33,248 bases of DNA from Nitrospinae bacterium RIFCSPLOWO2_12_FULL_45_22 (GTDB lineage: Bacteria; 2-12-FULL-45-22), in assembly GCA_001803565.1 (NCBI GenBank), contig MHDQ01000302.1, positions 1 through 33,248 on the forward strand. The letters run 5' to 3'. Positions 1-11,252 of the stretch are shown here, piece by piece. The position numbers and the translations under genes were made by a program. The stretch's first letter is position 1. Each line of letters opens with the position of its first letter. The notes below the pieces were generated by a model. That model made no database searches and was not told the origin of the DNA. It saw only the letters and a list, made by a program, of their open reading frames with translations.

Positions 1-769
1 AGAAGGAAGATATATTTATTGCGTAATAGGGACGGATCAAGAGAGAAACTTTGGCCTTATGGGTATTGGCGGTCGGGGGGACGAGGTATATACCCTTTGT
101 TATCAAGGTCAGGCCGCGGTCATCAGTAATTCTCCTGTCACGCAATATCCTATCTCCCGGGAGAATATCCTGGCCCATCAAAGGGTCATGGAAAGGGTAA
201 TGGGGGATTATACTGTTTTGCCGGTGAGGTTTGGGACCATTGCAGAGAGTAAAGACGGGGTTTCTGCCGAGCAGAGGATCAAAGAGAAGGTTTTACGGGG
301 AAGATATAAGGAATTAGAGGGTCTACTCCAGACAATGGAGAACAAGGTAGAGCTTGGCGTAAAGGCCTTATGGGCTGATATGAGTTTGATCTTTGGGGAA
401 ATCATTCAGGAAAACAAGGAGATTAGAATACTAAAGAAAAAGATAGAAGCCAGACCCCCTCTCCAGACCCGTGATGAGAGAATTGCCCTGGGAGAGATGG
501 TGCAATCCAGATTGGAGGCAAAAAGGGAAAAGGAGGGGAAGGCTCTCTTAACTGCCCTAAAAAAGATAGCAGCCGATTACCGGACCAATAAGCCCCTTGG
601 CGACCGGATGATAATGAATGCTGCCTTCTTAGTAAATACTGATGCCATGGAAGATTTCGATAATCAAGTAAATAAATTAGCGGCTGAAGGTCAGGAGAGA
701 ATAAAGCTTAAGTATGTCGGCCCGGTACCGCCCTGCAATTTTGTGGATTTAACCGTTACCTGGGAATAA
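1..769 (+). CDS. gvpF: Gas vesicle protein GvpF/GvpL family, 5'-partial (continues upstream of the window)
   Basis: ORF 59..769 carries GvpF/L hallmarks (EVYTLCY, TVLPVRFGTI). The in-frame translation of nt 2..58 (GRYIYCVIGTDQERNFGL) aligns with the RYIYCIVESNDRLSLGRIGIGGNEVYTI core of the paralogue at 5568..6773. The true start therefore lies off-window. Confidence 0.85.
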   Translation, partial: EGRYIYCVIGTDQERNFGLMGIGGRGDEVYTLCYQGQAAVISNSPVTQYPISRENILAHQRVMERVMGDYTVLPVRFGTIAESKDGVSAEQRIKEKVLRGRYKELEGLLQTMENKVELGVKALWADMSLIFGEIIQENKEIRILKKKIEARPPLQTRDERIALGEMVQSRLEAKREKEGKALLTALKKIAADYRTNKPLGDRMIMNAAFLVNTDAMEDFDNQVNKLAAEGQERIKLKYVGPVPPCNFVDLTVTWE

Positions 770-781
770 AAGGAGGAGAAG

Positions 782-1054
782 ATGGCAAACCAAGAAGATA
801 TGGGCTTAGGTTTCCTGGACATATTATTCCCCTTTTTCATTCCTCTAAAGGGGCTGATGTGGATTGGGGGAAAGGTTAAGGAAATGGTAGAAAGGGAAAT
901 GACTGATGAACCCAAAATTCACGAAGAGCTGCTAGAACTCCAGATGCGCCTTGAGATGGATGAGATAACGGAAGAGGAATATGAAAAAAGCGAGGGCAAA
1001 CTAATGGAGAAATTAGAAGAGATCAGGAGATATAAAGAAAAGGAAGGGGGGTGA
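782..1054 (+). CDS. gvpG: Gas vesicle protein GvpG
   Basis: 90 aa; LGFLDILFPFFIPLKGLMWI plus an acidic ELLELQMRLEMDEITEEEYE motif typical of GvpG; RBS aaaggagg 6 nt upstream. Confidence 0.85.
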   Translation: MANQEDMGLGFLDILFPFFIPLKGLMWIGGKVKEMVEREMTDEPKIHEELLELQMRLEMDEITEEEYEKSEGKLMEKLEEIRRYKEKEGG

Positions 1055-1058
1055 GAAG

Positions 1059-1280
1059 ATGGAGGCAAAGATTAGACCAGCATCAAGAACAGGACCCTTT
1101 AAATGCCTCAGATGCGGGAGTATAACCGCGAGTGGGTTAAAGTATTGCACCCAATGCGGCGAGAAGCTTACTATAGAATGTCCTGGCTGTAACACTACCT
1201 GGCGTTTTTATTCCTATTATCCTTACTGCCCAGAGTGTGGGACAAAGACCAGCCAGAGATACGCTGAGGCTGCTCGCTAG
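1059..1280 (+). CDS. Small zinc-ribbon protein (two CxxC pairs)
   Basis: 73 aa; CLRCG..CTQCG and CPGC..CPECG motifs; RBS aaggaaggggg upstream; coupled to gvpG. Confidence 0.7.
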   Translation: MEAKIRPASRTGPFKCLRCGSITASGLKYCTQCGEKLTIECPGCNTTWRFYSYYPYCPECGTKTSQRYAEAAR

Positions 1281-1406
1281 CACGAGAAATAAATAAAAAA
1301 TAAAAAAATGTGGACACGAATTTTATTCGTACTATCGAGGGAGCGGATAAATCCGTGCCCTCAATATTCTCATAAGCATAAGGGAAAATAACAAGGAGGA
1401 AAGAAG

Positions 1407-1673
1407 ATGGTTTTATCTTTAGATCAATTAATTCTACGGGCCCGGGAACAACTCAACAAAATCACCGGCTTAAAATTGTCCACTACCCTGGGAGTCACCA
1501 GGCATAATGGTACCTGGGTTGTCTCTGTGGAGTTGGTGGAAAAACATTCCATCCCTGATGGAATGGATATCCTGGCAACTTATGAGGTCAATATGGATGA
1601 AGAGGGTACCCTTGTCGATTTTAAGCGTAAAAGGCTCCGGAAACGGATAGATACCGAGGACGCAGAGGCATAG
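1407..1673 (+). CDS. gvpO: Gas vesicle protein GvpO
   Basis: 88 aa; GVTRHNGTWVVSVELVEKHSIPDGMDILATYEVNMDEEG matches the conserved GvpO core (…GxWxVxVEVVExxxxPDxxDILxxYEVxLDxxG…); strong RBS aaggagg. Confidence 0.85.
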   Translation: MVLSLDQLILRAREQLNKITGLKLSTTLGVTRHNGTWVVSVELVEKHSIPDGMDILATYEVNMDEEGTLVDFKRKRLRKRIDTEDAEA

Positions 1674-1756
1674 CTGAATGTTTGCGCTCATAGAGAATAG
1701 TTATCTGCGTGAATCTGCGTCCTAAATATAATTTAAGAGATAAAGGAACGAGACTA

Positions 1757-2680
1757 ATGCCACATCAAGGGCCAGGCTTTTTAGAAAACCAGGAGCTGCA
1801 ATTGATACTCTTCGGGGGGAAAGGCGGGAGTGGCAAGACCACCTTTGCGGCAGCCACTGCAATATATCGAGCCCAATCCAGCAAAAATAAAAAAATACTG
1901 GCCGTATCTACTGACCCGGCCCATTCCCTGGGGGATAGTTTCGGGGTCTTCATTGGGGACGAGCTTATACCCGTCAACGGTATAGAAAATCTGTGGGGGC
2001 TAGAGATAAATGCCCCGAAATTGCTGGAAGATTTCAAACAGAGACACGAGAAGGCAATCAAGAAACTGGCTGATCGTGGCACTTACTTTGACCAACAGGA
2101 TATAGCCGATTTCTTCTCCCTCTCATTACCCGGACTGGATGAAGTTATGGCCATCATAGAGATTGCCAATATCCTTAAGAATGGACAGTATGATCTGATT
2201 ATACTGGATACGGCTCCTACCGGGCATACCATTAATCTATTGGCCCTGCCCGAACAGATGGAAAAGTGGATCAAGGTCTTCGATCTGATGCAGGAAAAGC
2301 ACCGCTATATGGGGACGCATTTCACCGGTAGGAGGTATGTCAAAGATGATGCCGATGAGTTTATTGAGATGATGACCAGGGATATCGGCAGGGTGAAAAA
2401 CCTTCTTATGGATAAAAAAATAACGGAGTTTGTCCCGGTTACTATTCCAGAACCAATGAGTATATATGAGACCGAACGGCTTTTGGCGGTTTTGAAAGAT
2501 TATAAGATTTCTGTTAAAAGTATTATTGCTAACCGAGTTATTATTGATGAGGGGGTAGATTGTCCTTCCTGTCTGTCCAGAATAAGAGAAAAGGAGAAGT
2601 ATATAAGAGAGATGGAGAGAAGTTCGCTCTTTATAATCTCCTTAAAATGCCTTTATTCCCTGCCGAAGTTAGGGGGATAG
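1757..2680 (+). CDS. ArsA/GET3-family P-loop ATPase (single-domain), copy 1
   Basis: Deviant Walker A LFGGKGGSGKTT, switch region DTAPTGHT, C-terminal CPSC pair. ORF opens at GTG 1709, but the ATG at 1757 has RBS aaagga and is the likelier start. Confidence 0.85.
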   Translation: MPHQGPGFLENQELQLILFGGKGGSGKTTFAAATAIYRAQSSKNKKILAVSTDPAHSLGDSFGVFIGDELIPVNGIENLWGLEINAPKLLEDFKQRHEKAIKKLADRGTYFDQQDIADFFSLSLPGLDEVMAIIEIANILKNGQYDLIILDTAPTGHTINLLALPEQMEKWIKVFDLMQEKHRYMGTHFTGRRYVKDDADEFIEMMTRDIGRVKNLLMDKKITEFVPVTIPEPMSIYETERLLAVLKDYKISVKSIIANRVIIDEGVDCPSCLSRIREKEKYIREMERSSLFIISLKCLYSLPKLGG

Positions 2681-2730
2681 GGACCCTAAAGAAATTTATT
2701 GAGATATTGCAAGGAAATGGGGAAACATTC

Positions 2731-3756
2731 ATGAGCCCTCGGCTCACAAAGGATGATGAAAATATGTGGGATAGGAATGTACCGCATATCGATAGGCGGG
2801 GTTTTCTAACCCCGCAAAAACCATTTTCAGGAAAAGCCCCCTTAAATCGTGAATTCATCCTTTTTGGGGGCAAAGGCGGGGTAGGCAAGACTTCCCTGGC
2901 TGCCGCTACGGCCTTATGGCTAGCCAGAGAGGAGCGTAGCAAAAAAGTCCTGGCCTTCTCTACCGACCCGCCCATAGGGGATAAGATTACCCCTATAGAA
3001 GAGGTAGACAATCTTTATGCCCTGGAGATAAATGCCGCTAAATTACTGGAGGATTTTAAAGAGGAATACAGAGATGATATAAATGAAATGTTTGATAGGT
3101 TCTTGGCCGGAGGAATAGATGTCAAGTTTGATCGGGAGGTAATGACTGAGCTTATTTCCCTTGCGCCTCCTGGGTTAGATGAGATCATGGCCCTGGATAA
3201 GATTATAGATCTCAGAGATGCCCGGGAATTTGATCTGTTTATCCTGGACTCGGCTGCTACTGGACATCTACTCCGCTTCCTGGAACTGCCTGATCTGATC
3301 CGGGATTGGTTAAAAACCCTCTTCAAGATAATATTGAAATACAAGGGGATGGTACGCCTAACCAAGGTGGCTGAAAATTTGCTAAAACAGTCCAAAAATA
3401 CAAGAAAGATACAGGAAGCGCTTACAGACCCCCTCAGGAGTGAGTTTGTGGCAATAACCATCCCTGAGGCCATGGGTGTGTTGGAGATGGAAAGACTTCT
3501 ATCAGGCCTTAGTAGACTGAAGATACCCTGCCACCATATCATTATCAATATGGTCATTCCCCCAACGGATTGTAGTTTTTGCTCCTTCAAACGGAATGAA
3601 CAACAAAAGTATGTTAAGGCAATAAGAGATAACTTTGCCCGGTATCTGGTTTCCGAAATTCCCTTATTCCCCCATGAAATAAAGGAGAGAGAAAGATTGA
3701 ACGATCTTGCCGCGATGATGTATGATCCGGTCGAGGAGGTAATAAAAAGCGCCTGA
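2731..3756 (+). CDS. ArsA/GET3-family P-loop ATPase (single-domain), copy 2, with N-terminal 'GFLTPQK' module
   Basis: LFGGKGGVGKTS Walker A, DSAATGHLLRF switch, CSFCS pair. ORF opens at TTG 2560 overlapping copy 1; the ATG at 2731 with ggggaaa RBS is preferred, and the start is uncertain by about ±85 nt. Confidence 0.8.
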   Translation: MSPRLTKDDENMWDRNVPHIDRRGFLTPQKPFSGKAPLNREFILFGGKGGVGKTSLAAATALWLAREERSKKVLAFSTDPPIGDKITPIEEVDNLYALEINAAKLLEDFKEEYRDDINEMFDRFLAGGIDVKFDREVMTELISLAPPGLDEIMALDKIIDLRDAREFDLFILDSAATGHLLRFLELPDLIRDWLKTLFKIILKYKGMVRLTKVAENLLKQSKNTRKIQEALTDPLRSEFVAITIPEAMGVLEMERLLSGLSRLKIPCHHIIINMVIPPTDCSFCSFKRNEQQKYVKAIRDNFARYLVSEIPLFPHEIKERERLNDLAAMMYDPVEEVIKSA

Positions 3757-3811
3757 AGATAGAGATGTTTATCTATTCAGTGAAATGACTATTCCGATGA
3801 GGTAAGCAAAG

Positions 3812-4180
3812 ATGGTCCTAGAAGCCAGCAGAAACTCCAGCAGTACCTTAGTAGATGTAATAGATAGGATACTGGATAAGGGATTGGTGATCAATGCCGA
3901 TATAACTGTTTCCCTGGCTGGAGTAGAGTTGCTGGGTATCAAGATAAGGGCGGCTCTGGCTTCTTTCGAGACCGCAGCTAGATATGGCTTAGAGTTTCCC
4001 TCGGGGACTAATTATGAAACCTCAGCCTGGCAAGAAGCCCGGATAGGTAAAGAGAATTGTCCGCAGTGTGATAAGAGGACGCCGGTAGAGGAGCTTATTA
4101 GCACCGGCTGCCCCTGGTGTGGATGGATAAGTGCCAAGGCCAAGACCCTGGCCCAAAAAGCCGCCCCATCAATGATGTGA
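3812..4180 (+). CDS. GvpA/GvpJ/GvpM-fold gas vesicle protein fused to a C-terminal zinc ribbon
   Basis: N-terminus [39 protein letters not shown] is the GvpA/J/M signature; C-terminus has CPQC…CPWCGW. Confidence 0.8.
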
Positions 4181-4222
4181 GGCAACTTAATTACTGGTCT
4201 GAGAGGTAAAGAAGGTGTCGAA

Positions 4223-4555
4223 ATGGTTTTAGAATTCTTTTCCATCCCAGGAGCCCTTTTAAATGAAATTGATAAATATGCCTGTCAGCAGAGGGAAAGA
4301 GAGGCCAGAAATACCTACTGGATAAGGTGTCCCAATTGCGGAAAGCAGGTAGTAAAAAGGGAATTGATCAAGAAGGGGTGTTATGTATGCAACTGGCAGG
4401 GGACTGAAGATAAAATTAAACCGGCCAATCAAGAAACCAGGGATAGGCCAAATCCTTATAAGACAAATTGTCCCCGCTGCGGAGCCCGGGTGATAACCGA
4501 CCAACTACAAGAAAATGGGTGTTATCTCTGTGGATGGAAAGCTCCAAAGGATTAG
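4223..4555 (+). CDS. Double zinc-ribbon protein
   Basis: 110 aa; CPNCG…CYVCNW and CPRCG…CYLCGW, two ribbon units. Confidence 0.65.
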   Translation: MVLEFFSIPGALLNEIDKYACQQREREARNTYWIRCPNCGKQVVKRELIKKGCYVCNWQGTEDKIKPANQETRDRPNPYKTNCPRCGARVITDQLQENGCYLCGWKAPKD

Positions 4556-4558
4556 AAG

Positions 4559-4630
4559 GATAAATCCAAAGTTCAAAATCCAGATGCCAAAATATTTGAG
4601 CTTTGACATTTGGGCTTTTATTTTTAAGGA
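4559..4630 (+). promoter_or_regulatory. Conserved ~70-nt upstream element, copy A (precedes the Hsp20/gvpH-like gene)
   Basis: Near-identical to 5482..5553 (about 4 mismatches over ~72 nt); contains TTGACA at 4603..4608 and a T-rich tract. Confidence 0.7.
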
Positions 4631-4638
4631 TTAGAAGG

Positions 4639-5148
4639 ATGGATGAGATGGATAGAGAAGAAGGAGAAAAAGAGATAAAAAAATCTGAAGAAGACGAGGA
4701 TCGGGAGCCTGAAGGGATAGCCGGTAATGTGCTTAAGGGATTAGGTGATATTATTCCTGGGCTGGGTGGCTTGATCAAGGGCTTGAAGAAATCGGCGGCC
4801 TTCCAGGATAGGTTGAAAGTGATAGATGCGGAGGTTGAGGCCAGGTTAAAGGGGAAAGGATTGACTGAAAAGGAAGGAGAAATCTACCGATCAAGACCGA
4901 CGGTTGCAACCCCTAAGGAGGTTCCAGTAGAGCTCTTTGATGAAGGAGATTATTGGAGGGTAATCGCGGAATTGCCCGGGATAGAAGAAAAGGATATTAA
5001 GGTTGATCTGGAGGGTGCCAGGGTATTCATATCTGTCAATAGCTCCCAGCGTAAATATCACCGGGAAATCAACCTGGCTTGTACCCCTAAAGGCGATCTC
5101 AAAAAAGTTTATAAAAATGGGATACTAGAGATCACTATAGAAAAATAA
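4639..5148 (+). CDS. gvpH: Hsp20/alpha-crystallin-family protein (GvpH-like)
   Basis: ACD motifs WRVIAELPGIEEKDIKVDL … YKNGILEITIEK; start chosen at MDEMDREEG with RBS agaagg (ORF 4603 begins inside the repeat). Confidence 0.8.
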   Translation: MDEMDREEGEKEIKKSEEDEDREPEGIAGNVLKGLGDIIPGLGGLIKGLKKSAAFQDRLKVIDAEVEARLKGKGLTEKEGEIYRSRPTVATPKEVPVELFDEGDYWRVIAELPGIEEKDIKVDLEGARVFISVNSSQRKYHREINLACTPKGDLKKVYKNGILEITIEK

Positions 5149-5156
5149 CGAAGATT

Positions 5157-5480
5157 ATGCCTATTGATATTGATCAGGATAATTTGCGACATGGGGTCTT
5201 AGGTCTAGTTCTAGCCCTGGTGGAGATAATCAGAGATGCGTTGAGGCTCCAGGCCTTCAGACGCATGGAGGGAGGCAGCTTGACCGAGAAAGAGATTGAA
5301 CGATTAGGAGAGGCCTTGTTGGACCTGGATACCGCCATTGACCAGATCAAAGAAGAGCAAGGGATTACTGAGGCGGTTCAGGGTGTGAGAGATGGCCTGG
5401 ACAGCATTGTAGATGAAGTTATAGACCAGTTTGTTAACCCAGAACGGTGGGAAGAAAAAGCCAGAGAAAAGCGGGCTTGA
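5157..5480 (+). CDS. gvpK: Gas vesicle protein GvpK
   Basis: HGVLGLVLALVEIIRDALRLQAFRRMEGGSLTEKEIERLGEAL closely matches the conserved GvpK core. Confidence 0.9.
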   Translation: MPIDIDQDNLRHGVLGLVLALVEIIRDALRLQAFRRMEGGSLTEKEIERLGEALLDLDTAIDQIKEEQGITEAVQGVRDGLDSIVDEVIDQFVNPERWEEKAREKRA

Positions 5481-5481
5481 T

Positions 5482-5553
5482 GATAAATCCAAAGTTCAAA
5501 ATCCAAATGCCAAAATATTTGAGCTTTGACATGTGGGGTTTTTATTTTTAAAG
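5482..5553 (+). promoter_or_regulatory. Conserved ~70-nt upstream element, copy B (precedes the second gvpF/L)
   Basis: Near-identical to 4559..4630. Confidence 0.7.
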
Positions 5554-5567
5554 AAGGGATATTCAGA

Positions 5568-6773
5568 ATGGAGAGGGAAGTATCGCCGCTAAAGGTGTTA
5601 ATAGAGAGAATAATCAAAGATGAGATAGAGGATATGGCTGGGGAGATCAAGTCCCTGGTAAAGCAAACTGTCAAGAGCAGTTTTGTCTCAAAAATTAGAG
5701 AATCAGTGAGAAATGCTATATCAGAGACAATAGAAGAAATATTGCCAGAGACTGGGAAGCCCGGAATTATAACTTGCAGCAATGAAACTCAGTGGGATAA
5801 AGATTTTCCCCATCCATCCTATGAATTGGTACCCGGCGATAGGCAGGGTTTTCTAACCCCGCAAAAAGAATTTGTAACCGTTCACCCACACATTGCCCAC
5901 GATGTCATTCTGAGCGAAAGCGAAGAATCTCTTTCGCCGGAGACCCTTCGCCCCGCTCAGGGTGACAGTCCCAGTGAACGGTTACAAGAATTTAATACCG
6001 GGGATGGCAATAATAGCGGGAGATATATCTATTGTATTGTGGAGAGTAATGATCGGTTAAGCCTTGGCCGGATCGGTATAGGAGGTAATGAGGTGTATAC
6101 TATCCCCTATAAAGACCTGGCTGCCCTAGTCCACAATTGCTCCACCGAACCTTACGCTTCAGAAGATAGTGAAATAGTCAAGGGATGGGTAATGACGCAT
6201 CAAGAAGTCTTGGAAAGGACAGCTCAGAGATTTAGTACCGTGATACCTTTAGGCTTTGACACTATTATCAAAGCTGTAAACGGTCAAACCCCTGAGCAAA
6301 ACCTGATAGAGTGGCTAAAAGGAGATTATGAGAATCTCAAGGTAAAGGTAGCGAGGCTGAAAGGAAAGGAGGAGTATGGGGTACAGATCCTTTGGAACCC
6401 CAAAATTATCGGGCAAAAAATTGCCCAGATCACCCCTGAAATTAAGAAATTAGATGAGGATATAAAATCGAAGCCCAGAGGAATGGCCTATATGTATAAA
6501 CAGAAGCTAGAAGATGCCTTAAAAACTGAGCTAGAAAAGGCGGCTGATCGTTATTTTAAGGAATTTTATGAACAGATTAAGCCCTGGGCAGATGATCTGC
6601 GGGTAGAAAAGACCAAGAAGGCCGAGGAGGGCAAGCATATGCTCATGAATCTCTCCTGCCTGGTGGATAAGGAAAAATATAAAAAGTTGGGTGAAGAACT
6701 GGAGAGGATTAACAATATGGATGGTTTTTTTGTACGCTTTACCGGCCCCTGGCCACCCTATAGCTTTGTCTAG
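5568..6773 (+). CDS. gvpL: GvpF/GvpL-family protein with ~150-aa N-terminal extension carrying the 'GFLTPQK' module
   Basis: C-terminal ~250 aa paralogous to feature 1 (RYIYCIVE…EVYTIPY…). N-terminal extension has WDKDFPH…GDRQGFLTPQKEF. Start taken at MEREVSPLK with RBS aagaaggg. Confidence 0.8.
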   Translation: MEREVSPLKVLIERIIKDEIEDMAGEIKSLVKQTVKSSFVSKIRESVRNAISETIEEILPETGKPGIITCSNETQWDKDFPHPSYELVPGDRQGFLTPQKEFVTVHPHIAHDVILSESEESLSPETLRPAQGDSPSERLQEFNTGDGNNSGRYIYCIVESNDRLSLGRIGIGGNEVYTIPYKDLAALVHNCSTEPYASEDSEIVKGWVMTHQEVLERTAQRFSTVIPLGFDTIIKAVNGQTPEQNLIEWLKGDYENLKVKVARLKGKEEYGVQILWNPKIIGQKIAQITPEIKKLDEDIKSKPRGMAYMYKQKLEDALKTELEKAADRYFKEFYEQIKPWADDLRVEKTKKAEEGKHMLMNLSCLVDKEKYKKLGEELERINNMDGFFVRFTGPWPPYSFV

Positions 6774-6775
6774 AA

Positions 6776-7033
6776 ATGGAACCAACCAGAAATACCCATG
6801 CAACTTTAGTAGATTTATTGGACCGCATCCTGGATAAGGGGCTGGTGATACATGCCGATATTATCGTATCAGTGGCAGGAATACCCTTAATCGGGGTTAA
6901 TTTGCGGGCTGCCCTGGCAGGAATGGAAACGATGCTAAGATACGGTGTACTGCAGGCCTGGGATGAAGGCACCAGGGCCTGGGAACGGAGACAGAGAATG
7001 AAAGGAGAAATGGGAGTTTCTTCAGCAGTTTAG
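6776..7033 (+). CDS. GvpJ/GvpM-type small gas vesicle protein
   Basis: [47 protein letters not shown]; start 3 nt after the gvpL stop (coupled). Confidence 0.85.
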   Translation: MEPTRNTHATLVDLLDRILDKGLVIHADIIVSVAGIPLIGVNLRAALAGMETMLRYGVLQAWDEGTRAWERRQRMKGEMGVSSAV

Positions 7034-7063: not shown

Positions 7064-7130
7064 GGTTGTAGTGGCAGAGCTTGCTCTGCTTGGGTGCTTA
7101 TCGGGATGTCGAGCAAGCTCGACCACTACA
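7064..7130. repeat. REP-like palindromic element: two inverted copies of a 23-nt unit (TTGTAGTGG + GAGCwwGCTC hairpin) flanking a 21-nt spacer
   Basis: 7064..7086 ttgtagtggcagagcttgctctg and 7108..7130 tcgagcaagctcgaccactacaa (reverse-complement orientation). The differences between arms are compensatory within each internal hairpin. Confidence 0.65.
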
Positions 7131-7139
7131 AAAGGAAAC

Positions 7140-8984
7140 ATGGGTAGAGTAGTAGGGATTGACTTAGGGACTACTAATTCAGTAGTAGCCATTATGGAGA
7201 GGGGAAAGCCTAAGGTTATACCTAATGCTGACGGTAACCCCTTGACTCCATCAGTGGTAGCCTTTACCCCGGATTGGAGACCTCTGGTAGGTCAGTTAGC
7301 TAAGAAACAGGCAACGGTAAATCCCGAAAAAGCCCTCTTTTCTATCAATAAAAGGATGGAGAGAAGTTCCTATGGGGAGAGGAATAATCCTGCTAGTTTT
7401 AACCAGATTATTACTTCTATCAAGAGACGGATGGGCTCTAACTATATAGTAAAGATTGATAACAGGGAATATACCCCCCAGGAGATCTCCAGCATGATCT
7501 TGCAAAAAATAAAGAGGGATGCAGAAGACTATCTGGGCGAAAAAATAGGGAAGGCCGTGATTACTGTGCCTGCTTATTTTAATGATAGCCAGCGCAAGGC
7601 TACTAAAGATGCTGCTACTATTGCTGATCTGGAAGTCATCAGGATTATTAATGAACCAACCGCAGCAGCCCTGGCTTATGGCTTAGACAAAGAAGATATT
7701 CATACCATTTTGGTTTGGGACCTTGGGGGTGGTACCTTTGATGTCTCTATTTTGGAATTAGGAGATGGCTTCTTTGAGGTTAAGGCAGTAAATGGCGATA
7801 CCCACCTGGGTGGGGATGACTATGACCAGCGAATTGTTAATTATTTAGCCGATGTTTGTCAAAAAGAGCAAGATATTGACCTCCGGCAAGATAGGATTAC
7901 CCTTCAGATACTGAAAGAAGTAGCCGAAAAGGCCAAGATTGAGCTCTCCTATGCCCTAACTACCAATATAAGTTTATCTTTGATTTACCAAGATGGTCTT
8001 AAGAACCCGGATATTATCCTGAGGAGGGAAGAGTTTAATGAGCTAACCGAGGATTTAAGAGAGCGAATGATACGACCAACGCAACAGGCCCTGGTTGATG
8101 CCAGGCTTTCTCCTGAGGATATTGATAGGGTGATCCTGGTAGGTGGGGCCACCAGGATGCCAGCGATACAGGAATTGGCTAAGACGCTCCTGGGCAAAGA
8201 GCCCTATAACCATATTGATCCAGACAAGATTGTAGCGCTGGGGGCCGCTATTCAGGCCGGTATTTTAACGGGGGAAGTTAGGAAAGTGACCTTGATAGAT
8301 GTTAATCCTTTATCTTTAGGCATCGAGACTATGGGCGGAGTATTTACCAGGATCATTGAAAGAAATACACCTATTCCTACCTCTCAAAGCCGGGTCTTTA
8401 CTACTGCTCGGGACAATCAAACAGAAGTAGATATCCATGTCTTCCAAGGAGAGCGGGCGATGGTCAGACATAATATGCCCCTGGACAGGTTCCGCCTTAC
8501 CGGTATCGAACCTCAACCCCGAGGCGAAGCCCGCATCGAGGTAATTTTTGATATTGATGTCAATAGTATTGTCCAGGTGTCAGCTATAGACCTTCAGACG
8601 GATAACCAGCAAAAGATAGAGATTAACTCGTTTGGGAGCCTGCTGGAAGAAGGGATAGACCAGATGGTTGAAGAAGCCAGGATATATGCTGAGCAAGATA
8701 GGAGAGAGCGAGAAAAAATAGAGGCAAGTATCCGGGCTAATAGTATGATTTGTGCGGCTGAGCACATGATTAAAGAGGTGGAGGAAAAAATTAGTAACTC
8801 CCTCCGGGAAGGGGTAATCGAGATTGAACAAGCTATACTCCTGGTTAAAGAGGCCCTGGCCAGTAGTAATTACCAGGAAGTAAAATCCCGAACACAAGAA
8901 TTAGAAAGGCTTATTCAGGCCAGGGAGAGAGAAAGGAGGAATAAAAAAAAGGAGATAAAGGAAGAGGAGGCGGTACTAACTTGA
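7140..8984 (+). CDS. dnaK: Hsp70 chaperone DnaK (divergent, stand-alone; no grpE/dnaJ adjacent)
   Basis: [45 protein letters not shown], substrate-binding domain and helical lid present. ORF opens at GTG 7071 but the conserved N-terminus begins at ATG 7140. Confidence 0.9.
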
Positions 8985-9004
8985 TATACAGAGCGACATA
9001 ATTA

Positions 9005-9100
9005 TTTGCGCATACCAACATTGCCTGTCATTCCGGGCTTGACCCGGAATCCAGCATCTTTTCTGGATTCCGGCTTTCGCCGGAATGACGACTTATGCGT
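9005..9100. repeat. Structured palindromic element (tandem hairpins attccggg-N5-cccggaat / attccgg-N6-ccggaat with outer 10-bp inverted repeat gtcattccgg/ccggaatgac and imperfect 15-bp flanking inverted repeats)
   Basis: Read directly from 9027..9089; mutually exclusive alternative pairings are possible. Confidence 0.55.
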
Positions 9101-9232
9101 ATTTAATTTGGACGCTGTGTATAGTATAGGAATTTTCATTTTAATAATGCGGTTTTTCACTCCTCGCAACGACAGTATGTATTGAAATGTTAATTTGGCA
9201 ACGATGTACTAGAGACCCAGGAGGATAAGGCA

Positions 9233-9541
9233 ATGGATTTTCTAGGAAGGAGCAAATGGGAGACGTTAGAGGAAAAAATAGTAGATATTGTTGATGGGAA
9301 GAGACGGGTGCTGGTCATTGCTGAGATGCCCGGTGTATCCGAGGAGGAGATCAATATAGATATTGCCGGTGATGTCCTTTTGCTTCTGGCTTCCCATAAG
9401 GATAAGAAGTATTCCAATGAGATATTCCTACCAGCCAGAGTAAAAAGAGAAACTATGAAATATATCTATAAAAACGGCCTCTTAGAGATCACTATAGACA
9501 AAGAACTAGCTCGGAAACCAGGTCAATTAAATTATATTTAG
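9233..9541 (+). CDS. Hsp20-family small protein, paralogue of the GvpH-like protein
   Basis: VLVIAEMPGVSEEEINIDI … YKNGLLEITIDK, C-terminus nearly identical to 4639..5148; RBS aggagg. Confidence 0.75.
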   Translation: MDFLGRSKWETLEEKIVDIVDGKRRVLVIAEMPGVSEEEINIDIAGDVLLLLASHKDKKYSNEIFLPARVKRETMKYIYKNGLLEITIDKELARKPGQLNYI

Positions 9542-9587
9542 GACGCAGATTTCCGCAGACATTTTAGTGAGGAGTAAGCAGTGAGCC

Positions 9588-9620: not shown

Positions 9621-9754
9621 TTTACAAAATCTGTGTTCATCTGTGTCCAAAATGAAAATCCCTATACTATCAACCTGGACTACTTTCTCCCCCCGCTAGA
9701 TAACAAGCGCCTGGCAGGGTGGGGAAAAAATATCCCGGGGGCGATGCAAGGCTT

Positions 9755-11134
9755 TTATTCCGGGATCCTGGCCAGGATATCTTTATATGCTTTAAGGGAG
9801 TTGATTATTTTGTGGGTCTCATTCAGCCCTTCCAGGAGCAGTTTAGACGACTGGGTAGCACCGGTTATCCCATCTATATCTTCTTTGAGTGTTAATGGCA
9901 GTTTTTGGTTAGCTCGCTGAGTAACCCTCTGGAGGAAGTCCGGGGCGCTTATAAGCTCTCCATATAGATTTATATTTTCGATCAAGATAATGTTTTTTAT
10001 CTCTCCAGTGAGATCAAAGGTATAGACAAAGTGGACATTGGTGCAAACATCACAGAGGACATCTTTGAATACCTCCCGGGCGAGCACCTTCGCCCCAGTC
10101 TTATCCTTACCCAGATATACTGTATCCCCGTCCAGGTTGATCCTTTCAAACTTCTTAACCCCAGGGGCAGCCATCTCGAAATATCTCATTAATATATCCT
10201 CCGGGAGCTCTTCCCGAAAATAACTCTTTACCTTAACCAATACTGAAGCTACATTAGCCAGCGATACCTGATCGCTAATATATCTTATCTTACCTCTTTT
10301 GTTTATAATAAATACCCGGGGCAAATCCTTTACCCCATATAGGCGAGCCACTTCTTTGTTTTGGTCTACCAGGATAGGAAAATTCACATAATATTTTTTC
10401 CTGAATTCATTGACTTCGGCTGGCCTATCCCCCACGGCCACTCGAATCAAATCCACATCCTCCCGCCGGTAGGTACTATAAAGGGATTTCATTATCTCAA
10501 TAATCTGGCGGAGAGTCTCATCATGGATAGAAAGAAAGGTAAGGAGGAGGGTCTTTTTATTCAGTAGGTCTTTGAAGTTAAAAGTTTCTCCCTGACTGGT
10601 CTTGAGAGAGAAATCCGGTGGCCTATTCCATAAGTCTGCCCCAACAATCTCTTTTTCTACAATTATTCTGTCCAGAATAGATTTTAGCTCTTCATAGGTA
10701 GGCAACTTACCCCGGTATCTAATAGTCCCACTCCGGTCTATAATATCCACCAGGGGCACGGTAGCAACAAAATATTTTTTATACACTTCCTTTTTCGGGT
10801 CCGGTAGCATAAAAAACTTGGCCTTAAAGGCCTCTCTAAACTCTGAGGTCTCCTTCTCATCATTACCTATGGCCACCCCAATTACCTGCAAGTCTTTGTA
10901 TTTATGATAGATTTGGTTAACTTCATTAATCAGAGGGACATCTTCCCGACAGGTATGACAATACACATTAAAATGGACCAGCATTATGGCCTTCCCCAGG
11001 TACTGAGAAAGGATAAAGGGCTTCCCGTTAAGGTCTCTTAGGGTAAAATCAGGGGCCTCTGCACCTAACATATCAGCCATTGCTAGCCGCGGAAGAAATA
11101 GGAATATAAGTAATGCCAGCCAACCCTTTTTCAT
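9755..11134 (-). CDS. Exported protein: tandem thioredoxin-fold (TlpA/AhpC-TSA-like) domains + C-terminal FMN-binding (FMN_bind) domain
   Basis: Signal peptide MKKGWLALLIFLFLPRLAMA (start taken at M33 of the ORF). Domain 1 has CHTC. Domain 2 is paralogous but lacks CxxC. C-terminus has the DGITGATQSS FMN_bind signature. Confidence 0.75.
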   Translation of the reverse strand: MKKGWLALLIFLFLPRLAMADMLGAEAPDFTLRDLNGKPFILSQYLGKAIMLVHFNVYCHTCREDVPLINEVNQIYHKYKDLQVIGVAIGNDEKETSEFREAFKAKFFMLPDPKKEVYKKYFVATVPLVDIIDRSGTIRYRGKLPTYEELKSILDRIIVEKEIVGADLWNRPPDFSLKTSQGETFNFKDLLNKKTLLLTFLSIHDETLRQIIEIMKSLYSTYRREDVDLIRVAVGDRPAEVNEFRKKYYVNFPILVDQNKEVARLYGVKDLPRVFIINKRGKIRYISDQVSLANVASVLVKVKSYFREELPEDILMRYFEMAAPGVKKFERINLDGDTVYLGKDKTGAKVLAREVFKDVLCDVCTNVHFVYTFDLTGEIKNIILIENINLYGELISAPDFLQRVTQRANQKLPLTLKEDIDGITGATQSSKLLLEGLNETHKIINSLKAYKDILARIPE

Positions 11135-11223
11135 AAGCGCTCTCCTTGTTTTAATTTTCCGTGTCCTCTGGAATCTCTGTGGCTTTAGGTATCGTTTTAT
11201 AATCTTAACTGAATAGAAATAAA

Positions 11224-11252
11224 TTGACAAGCAGATTAATCTCTGCTAGATT
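11224..11252 (+). promoter_or_regulatory. Putative sigma70-type promoter (TTGACA-17-TAGATT) with an 18-nt palindrome AGCAGAttaatcTCTGCT filling the spacer
   Basis: Read from sequence, ~60 nt upstream of the radical SAM gene's ATG. Confidence 0.45.

Follow-up and report, generated by a model that had tools for sequence, protein, structure and literature searches.

Does the Hsp70 gene that follows a gas vesicle (gvp) gene cluster in a Nitrospinae metagenome-assembled genome (MAG) encode the housekeeping DnaK of its host, or is it, as the original prediction had it, part of a chaperone module dedicated to the assembly of Gvp proteins? The DNA analyzed here, referred to below as the window, is one whole contig of this MAG (MHDQ01000302.1; 33,248 bases). 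By Pfam identification, the gvp cluster spans positions 59-7033 of the plus strand, and it is followed co-directionally by the genes for an Hsp70 of 614 amino acids (aa) (7140-8984; Pfam HSP70, E-value 3e-210) and a small terminal Hsp20. The evidence supports the dedicated module: The gene order is shared across phyla, the protein falls in a separate clade, and the neighborhoods of this Hsp70 branch and of canonical DnaKs are mutually exclusive (gvp genes vs. grpE, hrcA, or dnaJ). We put the probability that the window Hsp70 belongs to a gvp cluster of a chaperone-rich type, and is not the housekeeping DnaK, at about 0.7.

The Hsp70 gene was correctly described as co-directional and contiguous with the gvp genes: It begins on the same strand after a spacer of 106 nucleotides (nt), behind a GvpA-family gene that ends at 7033. 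Neither Pfam searches of all large open reading frames (ORFs) nor tblastn detected grpE, dnaJ, or hrcA anywhere in the 33,248-base window.

A gvp-linked branch of Hsp70

Besides a 99% copy from the same population, the closest database relatives of the window Hsp70 are ~64% identical to it. We checked the gene neighborhoods of six relatives, and four out of the six are located directly within gvp clusters. The order GvpK, GvpF/L, GvpA-family gene, Hsp70 is found for P0006 (L003/L004), for P0039 on a 232-kb contig (L006/L007), and in Candidatus Hakubella thermalkaliphila, a member of the Actinomycetota (L010/L011); P0099, on a 217-kb contig (L008/L009), also follows this order, except that a few short genes stand ahead of the Hsp70. 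A fifth relative, P0005, from a genome named Thermodesulfobacteriota (L001), lies among ArsA and Hsp20 genes. The sixth, P0003, is encoded in a classical hrcA-grpE-dnaK operon. The Hakubella locus repeats nearly the whole order of the window: GvpF/L-GvpG-Zn ribbon-GvpO-ArsA-...-GvpA-family-Hsp20-GvpK-GvpF/L-GvpA-family-Hsp70-...-Hsp20. The window Hsp70 itself occupies the position that is typical of the branch, preceded by GvpK, GvpF/L, and a GvpA-family gene.

The members of this branch, others of which are named Thermodesulfobacteriota and Dehalococcoidia, share the signature LVW...EVKAV(N/S)G(N/D)T(W)LGGDD(Y/W)D and short, nonacidic C-termini. The window Hsp70 conforms to both, and P0003 lacks the signature. 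In the best canonical DnaKs of the list of relatives, which come from Firmicutes, the sequence is LVF/LVY...EVKATSGNNRLGGDDFD and the tails are acidic.

For a larger sample, public metagenome contigs were scanned for DNA coding for an 11-residue DnaK motif, yielding 120 loci that we annotated by tblastn with the Gvp proteins of the window and with GrpE, HrcA, and DnaJ from a canonical locus. The motif had been picked as branch-specific but is also present in canonical DnaKs, which account for 85 of the 120 loci; these 85 therefore serve as a control set. The short N-terminal fragments L093, L109, and L113 were classed by motif inspection rather than by bit-score ratio. Among the 35 loci of the gvp-linked branch, 22 have Gvp hits, seven have only ArsA or Hsp20 neighbors, and none has GrpE, HrcA, or DnaJ; the remaining six have flanks of <1 kb or no recognizable neighbors. 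Among the 85 canonical loci, for which ArsA and Hsp20 were not scored, GrpE, HrcA, or DnaJ occurs in 49 and Gvp hits in none. Where a branch locus has at least 1 kb of upstream sequence (n = 21), a gvp gene lies upstream in 19 cases and ArsA or Hsp20 in the other two. The co-occurrence of this Hsp70 clade with gvp genes, proposed as a check when the locus was first described, is thus borne out.

The same applies to its placement in an Hsp70 phylogeny. A neighbor-joining tree of 105 Hsp70s groups the 22 gvp-linked sequences with verified context, without exception, in one clade of 44 tips (bootstrap 100/100), which includes the window Hsp70 and none of the 43 sequences labeled as canonical (linked to GrpE, HrcA, or DnaJ, or named DnaK). 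Only four positions carry branch-specific residues at 80% conservation, and these give no sign of an altered substrate pocket. A scan of a genome collection with the window Hsp70 (a collection that does not include the source genome) gave one match, an unrelated Armatimonadota DnaK. As a side observation, the canonical DnaK P0003 (L002 2417-4753; 778 aa) contains an exact internal duplication of ~170 residues, probably an assembly artifact.

The Hsp70 protein and a J-domain protein of the cluster

The ORF at 7071-8984 matches the Pfam HSP70 profile (PF00012) with 699.9 bits, compared with a cutoff of 20.6, over profile positions 1-592 of 599; the gene is intact and the match full-length, in agreement with the prediction of a complete Hsp70. 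The likely start codon is ATG 7140, since homologs begin at the equivalent residue, an AAGGA ribosome-binding site is located 5-9 nt upstream, and the alternative start, GTG 7071, sits within a hairpin with a 21-bp stem. This RNA hairpin (7066-7131, plus strand; inverted repeat I4, 21-nt arms) lies in the 106-nt spacer before the ribosome-binding site and ends 8 nt ahead of the start codon. It folds with -40.9 kcal/mol (z = -4.3), and none of 200 shuffled sequences was equally stable. The hairpin is identical in contig L014; other lineages, whose spacers measure ~20-70 nt, do not conserve it. It may tune the level of Hsp70 relative to that of the upstream GvpA-family gene.

The nucleotide-binding domain, linker, substrate-binding domain, and helical lid are all intact, and the C-terminus is short and basic, without an acidic tail. 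The top match among solved structures is Geobacillus DnaK (2V7Y; E-value 1e-181). Alignment to Escherichia coli DnaK (2KHO) shows conservation of the ATPase residues D8, E171, D194, T199, and D201, of the interdomain residue R151, of R167, N170, and T173 in the region that contacts J-domains, and of the substrate pocket residues I401, T403, M404, F426, A429, Q433, V436, and I438. The linker sequence VLLLD of E. coli DnaK reads VTLID, and the equivalent of K70 is ambiguous between two copies of an SIKR motif. An AlphaFold2 model built from 48 sequences has a predicted template modeling score of 0.78 and the expected secondary structure. Judged by its sequence and this model, the protein looks like a working Hsp70. 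It scores 783.7 bits with the NCBIfam model NF001413 ("molecular chaperone DnaK"), above the cutoff of 648, and 762.4 bits with the equivalog model TIGR02350, below the cutoff of 822.55; a canonical control (P0102) reaches 1025 and 990 bits on the NCBIfam DnaK models. NCBIfam has no model for the gvp-linked branch.

The N-terminal loop region of the nucleotide-binding domain, which had been called divergent at residues ~70-110, does contain an insertion of ~25 aa at about residues 64-91 (7329-7412, plus strand), visible as a gap in alignment with the DnaKs of Geobacillus and Mycobacterium tuberculosis. Gram-positive-type DnaK has nothing equivalent to residues 64-90 (~87-113 if numbered from GTG 7071), and AlphaFold2 gives residues 67-91 a predicted local distance difference test score of <50. 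The insertion is a partial tandem repeat of the catalytic-lysine motif (SIKRxMG type): Many branch members have FSIKRxMGR at this site, then 15-25 residues, and then I.QIKRRMGSDY. The motif spacing is a constant 135 residues in branch members with the insertion vs. 110 in members without it. In the window Hsp70, the first SIKR copy is degenerate and the second is canonical. We read the insertion as a tolerated loop and not as evidence of an altered mechanism.

Sister contigs (L012-L016), 98.7%-100% identical to the window in the region of overlap, reach further upstream. Within the Hsp70 gene, sister contigs differ from the window in four codons and approximately five synonymous sites, with no frameshifts; these differences are too few to measure selection. 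Upstream of the window, L012-L016 encode in order two-component regulators, a 170-aa Hsp20, a GvpA of 71 aa, GvpN, a CDC48-family AAA ATPase (TIGR01243, 977 bits), a 355-aa fusion protein, and a 227-aa protein, followed by the GvpF/L that opens the window. The 355-aa protein consists of a GvpF/L domain and then a J-domain (Pfam DnaJ), whose HPD motif is intact as YHPDK. Its gene lies ~9 kb upstream of the Hsp70, just past the 5' end of our contig, and L012 and L014 join the two genes physically on one contig. By tblastn, there is no J-domain within the window itself. The description of the Hsp70 as standing alone, with neither grpE nor dnaJ beside it, therefore holds for the window but not for the cluster, to which these sister contigs add the GvpF/L-J fusion.

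The fusion is not restricted to this population. It is also present in Hakubella (Pfam DnaJ, 3.8e-14) and at two more Hsp70-bearing loci (L114 and L126), and all 120 of its 120 best database homologs carry both PF06386 and PF00226. These homologs come from Dehalococcoidia, Desulfobacterales, Syntrophales, and a Methanosarcinaceae MAG and are named only "GvpL/GvpF family." The GvpF/L-J gene is always followed by a conserved protein of ~220 aa (L013 9090-9773; also in L138 and L139) that has no match in Pfam or NCBIfam and could be a further partner in the chaperone system. DnaJ-type CXXCXGXG zinc-finger proteins are encoded in the related clusters L001, L006, L008, L138, and L139.

Hsp20 genes, cluster layout, and repeats

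There are three groups of Hsp20-domain proteins in gvp clusters of this type. Genes of group A are found between those of the GvpA family and gvpK; the window copy (4648-5148) is 44%-49% identical over its full length to the Hsp20s at the same position in Hakubella and L006. Group B proteins (170-246 aa) have a conserved N-terminal region and, in this organism, are encoded upstream of the contig. Group C proteins (~300 aa), whose genes overlap the Hsp70 stop codon in other lineages, are absent from the window. Between phyla, two group C proteins (L010 11758-12669 and L006 11820-12794) are 51% identical, with an Hsp20-like C-terminal part and an N-terminal region without a family match; in L138, this N-terminal region is fused to a GvpA-family protein.

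The terminal Hsp20 (9233-9541, plus strand; 102 aa; Pfam HSP20, PF00011, 32.4 bits vs. a cutoff of 20.8, E-value 1e-7) consists of the alpha-crystallin domain only and has its own AGGAGG ribosome-binding site. With the NCBIfam Hsp20 model it scores 87 bits, below the cutoff of 140. It is nearest to group B, being 45%-49% identical to the C-terminal domain of that group in an alignment that begins at residue 10, and no remnant of an N-terminal arm was found upstream in any frame. We considered whether it could be a truncated ~300-aa group C protein and rejected this, as it is nearer to group B and the spacer holds no remnant. Its C-terminus had been described as nearly identical to that of the in-cluster Hsp20. 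The gene is real, and the two C-termini (YKNGLLEITIDK and YKNGILEITIEK) agree at 10 out of 12 residues; however, the similarity does not single out these two proteins, since the C-terminal string (YKNGILEI..., YRNGILEV...) is conserved in all three groups. Because the motif is common to all groups and the two proteins share just 36% identity across 88 aa, the near identity is no sign of a recent duplication. The terminal Hsp20 is an extra paralog that may be accessory or decaying.

All genes of the gvp cluster are on the plus strand and were identified with Pfam. The first GvpF/L (59-769; GvpL_GvpF, 1.8e-57) is cut at its 5' end by the contig start and marked as partial in the NCBI record; at full length, in sister contigs L013-L016, it has 258 aa. 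It is followed by GvpG (782-1054), a double zinc-ribbon protein (1059-1280), GvpO (1407-1673), a two-domain ArsA/Get3-type ATPase that is split in our contig (1757-3756; two ArsA_ATPase matches), a GvpA-family protein with a C-terminal zinc ribbon (3812-4180; Gas_vesicle, 3.8e-17, and zinc-ribbon families), and a second double zinc-ribbon protein (4223-4555; zinc-ribbon families). Next come the in-cluster Hsp20 (HSP20; 166 aa from ATG 4648, with the mechanical ORF starting at TTG 4603), GvpK (5157-5480), a second GvpF/L (probable start 5568, end 6773), and a GvpA-family protein of 85 aa (6776-7033). Zinc-ribbon modules are abundant in the cluster, one of them fused to a GvpA-family protein. 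The gene after the terminal Hsp20 (9755-11230) runs on the opposite strand, and we therefore place the end of the cluster at the terminal Hsp20. The remaining genes of the window include an AhpC/TSA-type redoxin, radical-SAM genes, RNase G, TsaD, and Tad-pilus genes. Scanning the window against Rfam and for tRNAs gave no match, and a promoter and terminator scan near the genes performed no better than on shuffled sequence.

In the ArsA gene of the window, 1 nt is deleted near 2615 and 30 nt are missing at 2970; the latter loss removes AHALSDSFGC from the second-half motif STDPAHALSD. In three sister contigs (L012, L014, and L015), the gene is intact as a single ORF of 666 aa, so the frameshift may be an assembly error; the broken copy reflects either such an error or real decay. 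The ArsA linker region (2726-2840) is also rearranged in our contig.

Several repeats accompany the cluster. The 248-nt spacer between the Hsp70 and the terminal Hsp20 (8985-9232, plus strand) holds a nested palindrome at 9027-9089 (GTCATTCCGG...CCGGAATGAC; inverted repeats I3 and I8) that resembles repetitive extragenic elements, and a 22-nt inverted repeat (9121-9142 and 9649-9670) flanks the terminal Hsp20. A 19-nt motif, TCTGYGKNNATCTGYGTCC, with two ATCTGYG half-sites 11 bp apart, has five intergenic copies in the cluster, with none expected by chance: window 1704-1722 (+), 9541-9559 (-), and 9630-9648 (+), and L013 7808-7826 (-) and 7952-7970 (+). The copies lie ahead of the GvpF/L-J gene, ahead of arsA, and past the terminal Hsp20, and two of them make a 33-nt inverted repeat that encloses arsA through the terminal Hsp20. 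Since regulators are encoded upstream in L013, the motif could be a putative response-regulator binding site. A 67-nt direct repeat (93% identical; 4559-4625 and 5482-5548) lies upstream of the in-cluster Hsp20 and of the second GvpF/L, and it accounts for the spurious TTG-extended ORF starts at these sites. Within coding sequence, a 37-nt repeat (92% identical; 2790-2826 and 5837-5873) with a GGGGTTTTCTAACCCC hairpin is translated as RRGFLTPQKPF in the linker of ArsA and as RQGFLTPQKEF in the N-terminal extension of GvpF/L, and it has the look of a short element that was inserted in frame.

Possible roles and comparison with known systems

Combining gene content and conservation with general knowledge of J-domain/Hsp70 systems, we infer the clients of the Hsp70, its direction of action (assembly vs. 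clearance), and its partnership with the J-domain protein. The GvpF/L domain of the fusion would bind the small, very hydrophobic GvpA-family proteins or the nascent vesicle, and its J-domain would trigger ATP hydrolysis by the cluster Hsp70, which could then clamp exposed hydrophobic segments in its fully canonical substrate pocket. The cluster Hsp20s would act as holdases for aggregation-prone clients, and the ArsA/Get3-like and CDC48-like ATPases would act alongside the Hsp70. Nucleotide exchange might be performed by the host GrpE or be spontaneous. As the outcome, shell subunits would be kept soluble and handed over for assembly. We tentatively propose, at somewhat less than even odds, that these loci represent a widespread and undescribed type of gvp cluster with its own proteostasis set (Hsp70, GvpF/L-J adaptor, small heat shock proteins, ArsA/Get3-like and CDC48-like ATPases), in which assembly would be Hsp70-driven and ATP-dependent, with GvpF/L handing GvpA-family subunits to Hsp70.

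Several observations weigh against these proposals. In the related cluster L138, which encodes the J-domain GvpF/L, CDC48, and Hsp20s, both Hsp70 and ArsA are missing, and this makes the Hsp70 a dispensable, optional addition to this cluster type; the J-domain can presumably work with the housekeeping DnaK of the host. The cluster encodes no nucleotide-exchange factor. The frameshifted ArsA copy means that the cluster may be decaying or the assembly imperfect, and the tree is a neighbor-joining tree of a partly motif-selected sample rather than a maximum-likelihood tree of an unbiased one. Finally, a second, canonical dnaK in this MAG is only inferred, because of the clade structure, the Gram-positive-type features of the window Hsp70 in a Nitrospinae genome, and what is to our knowledge a near-universal presence of dnaK-grpE in bacteria.

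That last point is one of those that would allow the Hsp70 to be a housekeeping DnaK that merely neighbors the gvp cluster, grpE and dnaJ being encoded at another place in the genome, as would the passing of NF001413 (784 vs. a cutoff of 648) and the canonical state of all catalytic and substrate-binding residues. We nevertheless regard this as very improbable: The same position in the gvp cluster is retained in several phyla, the protein groups apart from GrpE-linked DnaKs with 100/100 support, GrpE occurs in none of the 35 branch loci and gvp genes in none of the 85 canonical ones, the score is under the TIGR02350 equivalog cutoff, and the sequence is of Gram-positive type despite the Nitrospinae host. 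A similarly small chance attaches to the Hsp70 and terminal Hsp20 of this contig being decaying, nonfunctional remnants. The broken ArsA, the degenerate first SIKR copy, and the terminal Hsp20 (which lacks an N-terminal arm, lies behind a repeat-rich spacer, and has inverted repeats on both flanks) would fit such decay, but the ORF of the Hsp70 is unbroken and retains all key residues, sister contigs show few differences and no frameshifts in it, their intact ArsA ORFs leave room for an assembly error, and the ribosome-binding site of the terminal Hsp20 is strong.

The direction of action is less clear-cut than the membership in the cluster. Disaggregation systems that combine small heat shock proteins, Hsp70, and AAA+ proteins are known, and the cluster resembles them in joining an Hsp70, three Hsp20-domain genes, and a CDC48-family AAA ATPase. 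These proteins, the CDC48-like one as an unfoldase, might therefore disaggregate or recycle collapsed shells or misassembled Gvp aggregates instead of assisting assembly, a role to which the dispensability of the Hsp70 in related clusters would also be suited. We consider this unlikely, though less so than the two preceding explanations: The genes are co-directional with the structural genes, and the J-domain is fused to GvpF/L, a family that is treated as an assembly or nucleation factor (PMC2963123).

Compared with the canonical DnaK-DnaJ-GrpE system of hrcA-grpE-dnaK-dnaJ operons, the window Hsp70 has the same two-domain architecture, is ~60% identical to Firmicute DnaKs, and keeps the ATPase, J-domain-contact, and substrate-pocket residues that we checked against E. 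coli DnaK. It differs in its separate clade, its score under the TIGR02350 cutoff, the lack of an acidic C-terminal tail, the additional ~25 aa beside the catalytic-lysine motif, and a branch that never adjoins grpE, hrcA, or dnaJ in the sampled loci. The J partner differs as well, in that it is a GvpF/L fusion and not a DnaJ that has zinc-finger and C-terminal domains. Specialized Hsp70s, or J-domains on a targeting domain, that are encoded with the pathway they serve are known from HscA-HscB in Fe-S cluster assembly and from TopJ of the Mycoplasma terminal organelle. The gvp cluster follows the same logic, and the TopJ and HscB models weakly match the J-domain of the fusion; unlike HscA, the window Hsp70 is nearer to DnaK (784 vs. 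573 bits). Since dedicated Hsp70/J pairs are already a known idea, the link to gvp genes does not establish a new category.

Clusters that combine gvpF/L, G, J, K, M, O, and N with a two-domain ArsA homolog and an Hsp20 have been described in Chlorobi, Bacteroidetes, Geobacter, and Acidobacteria (Castillo and Saier 2010, PMC2963123), with no mention in that work of Hsp70, a J-domain, or CDC48. The clusters examined here are of the same type, with ArsA and Hsp20 present, but additionally encode an Hsp70, the GvpF/L-J fusion, and a CDC48-family ATPase, and they have as many as three Hsp20-domain genes. GvpA-type proteins that are expressed without assembly factors cause proteotoxic stress (PMC12848028). 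In model systems, accessory Gvp proteins (GvpN, GvpF/L, GvpH, and others) have a presumed anti-aggregation task for the hydrophobic GvpA-family proteins (PMC12848028) like the one proposed here; there, the task is ascribed to Gvp-specific proteins, whereas here general-purpose chaperone families have been recruited into the cluster. The full-text literature, excluding subscription-only papers, yielded no report of an Hsp70 or J-domain in gvp clusters. The protein families are ordinary, and the link between Hsp70 and gas vesicle formation is well supported and apparently undescribed.

For the nucleation and growth of gas vesicles from the very hydrophobic GvpA, the fusion of a J-domain to GvpF/L suggests a testable role for GvpF/L as an adaptor that brings clients to Hsp70. 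Work on ultrasound reporters finds heterologous expression held back by proteotoxic stress (PMC12848028), and the cluster Hsp70 is a candidate part for coexpression to improve vesicle formation in foreign hosts. Among the MAG proteins that carry the name "molecular chaperone DnaK," many probably do not represent the housekeeping chaperone. If our reading is true, the gvp-linked branch would be a new entry in the short list of bacterial Hsp70s that serve one assembly pathway.

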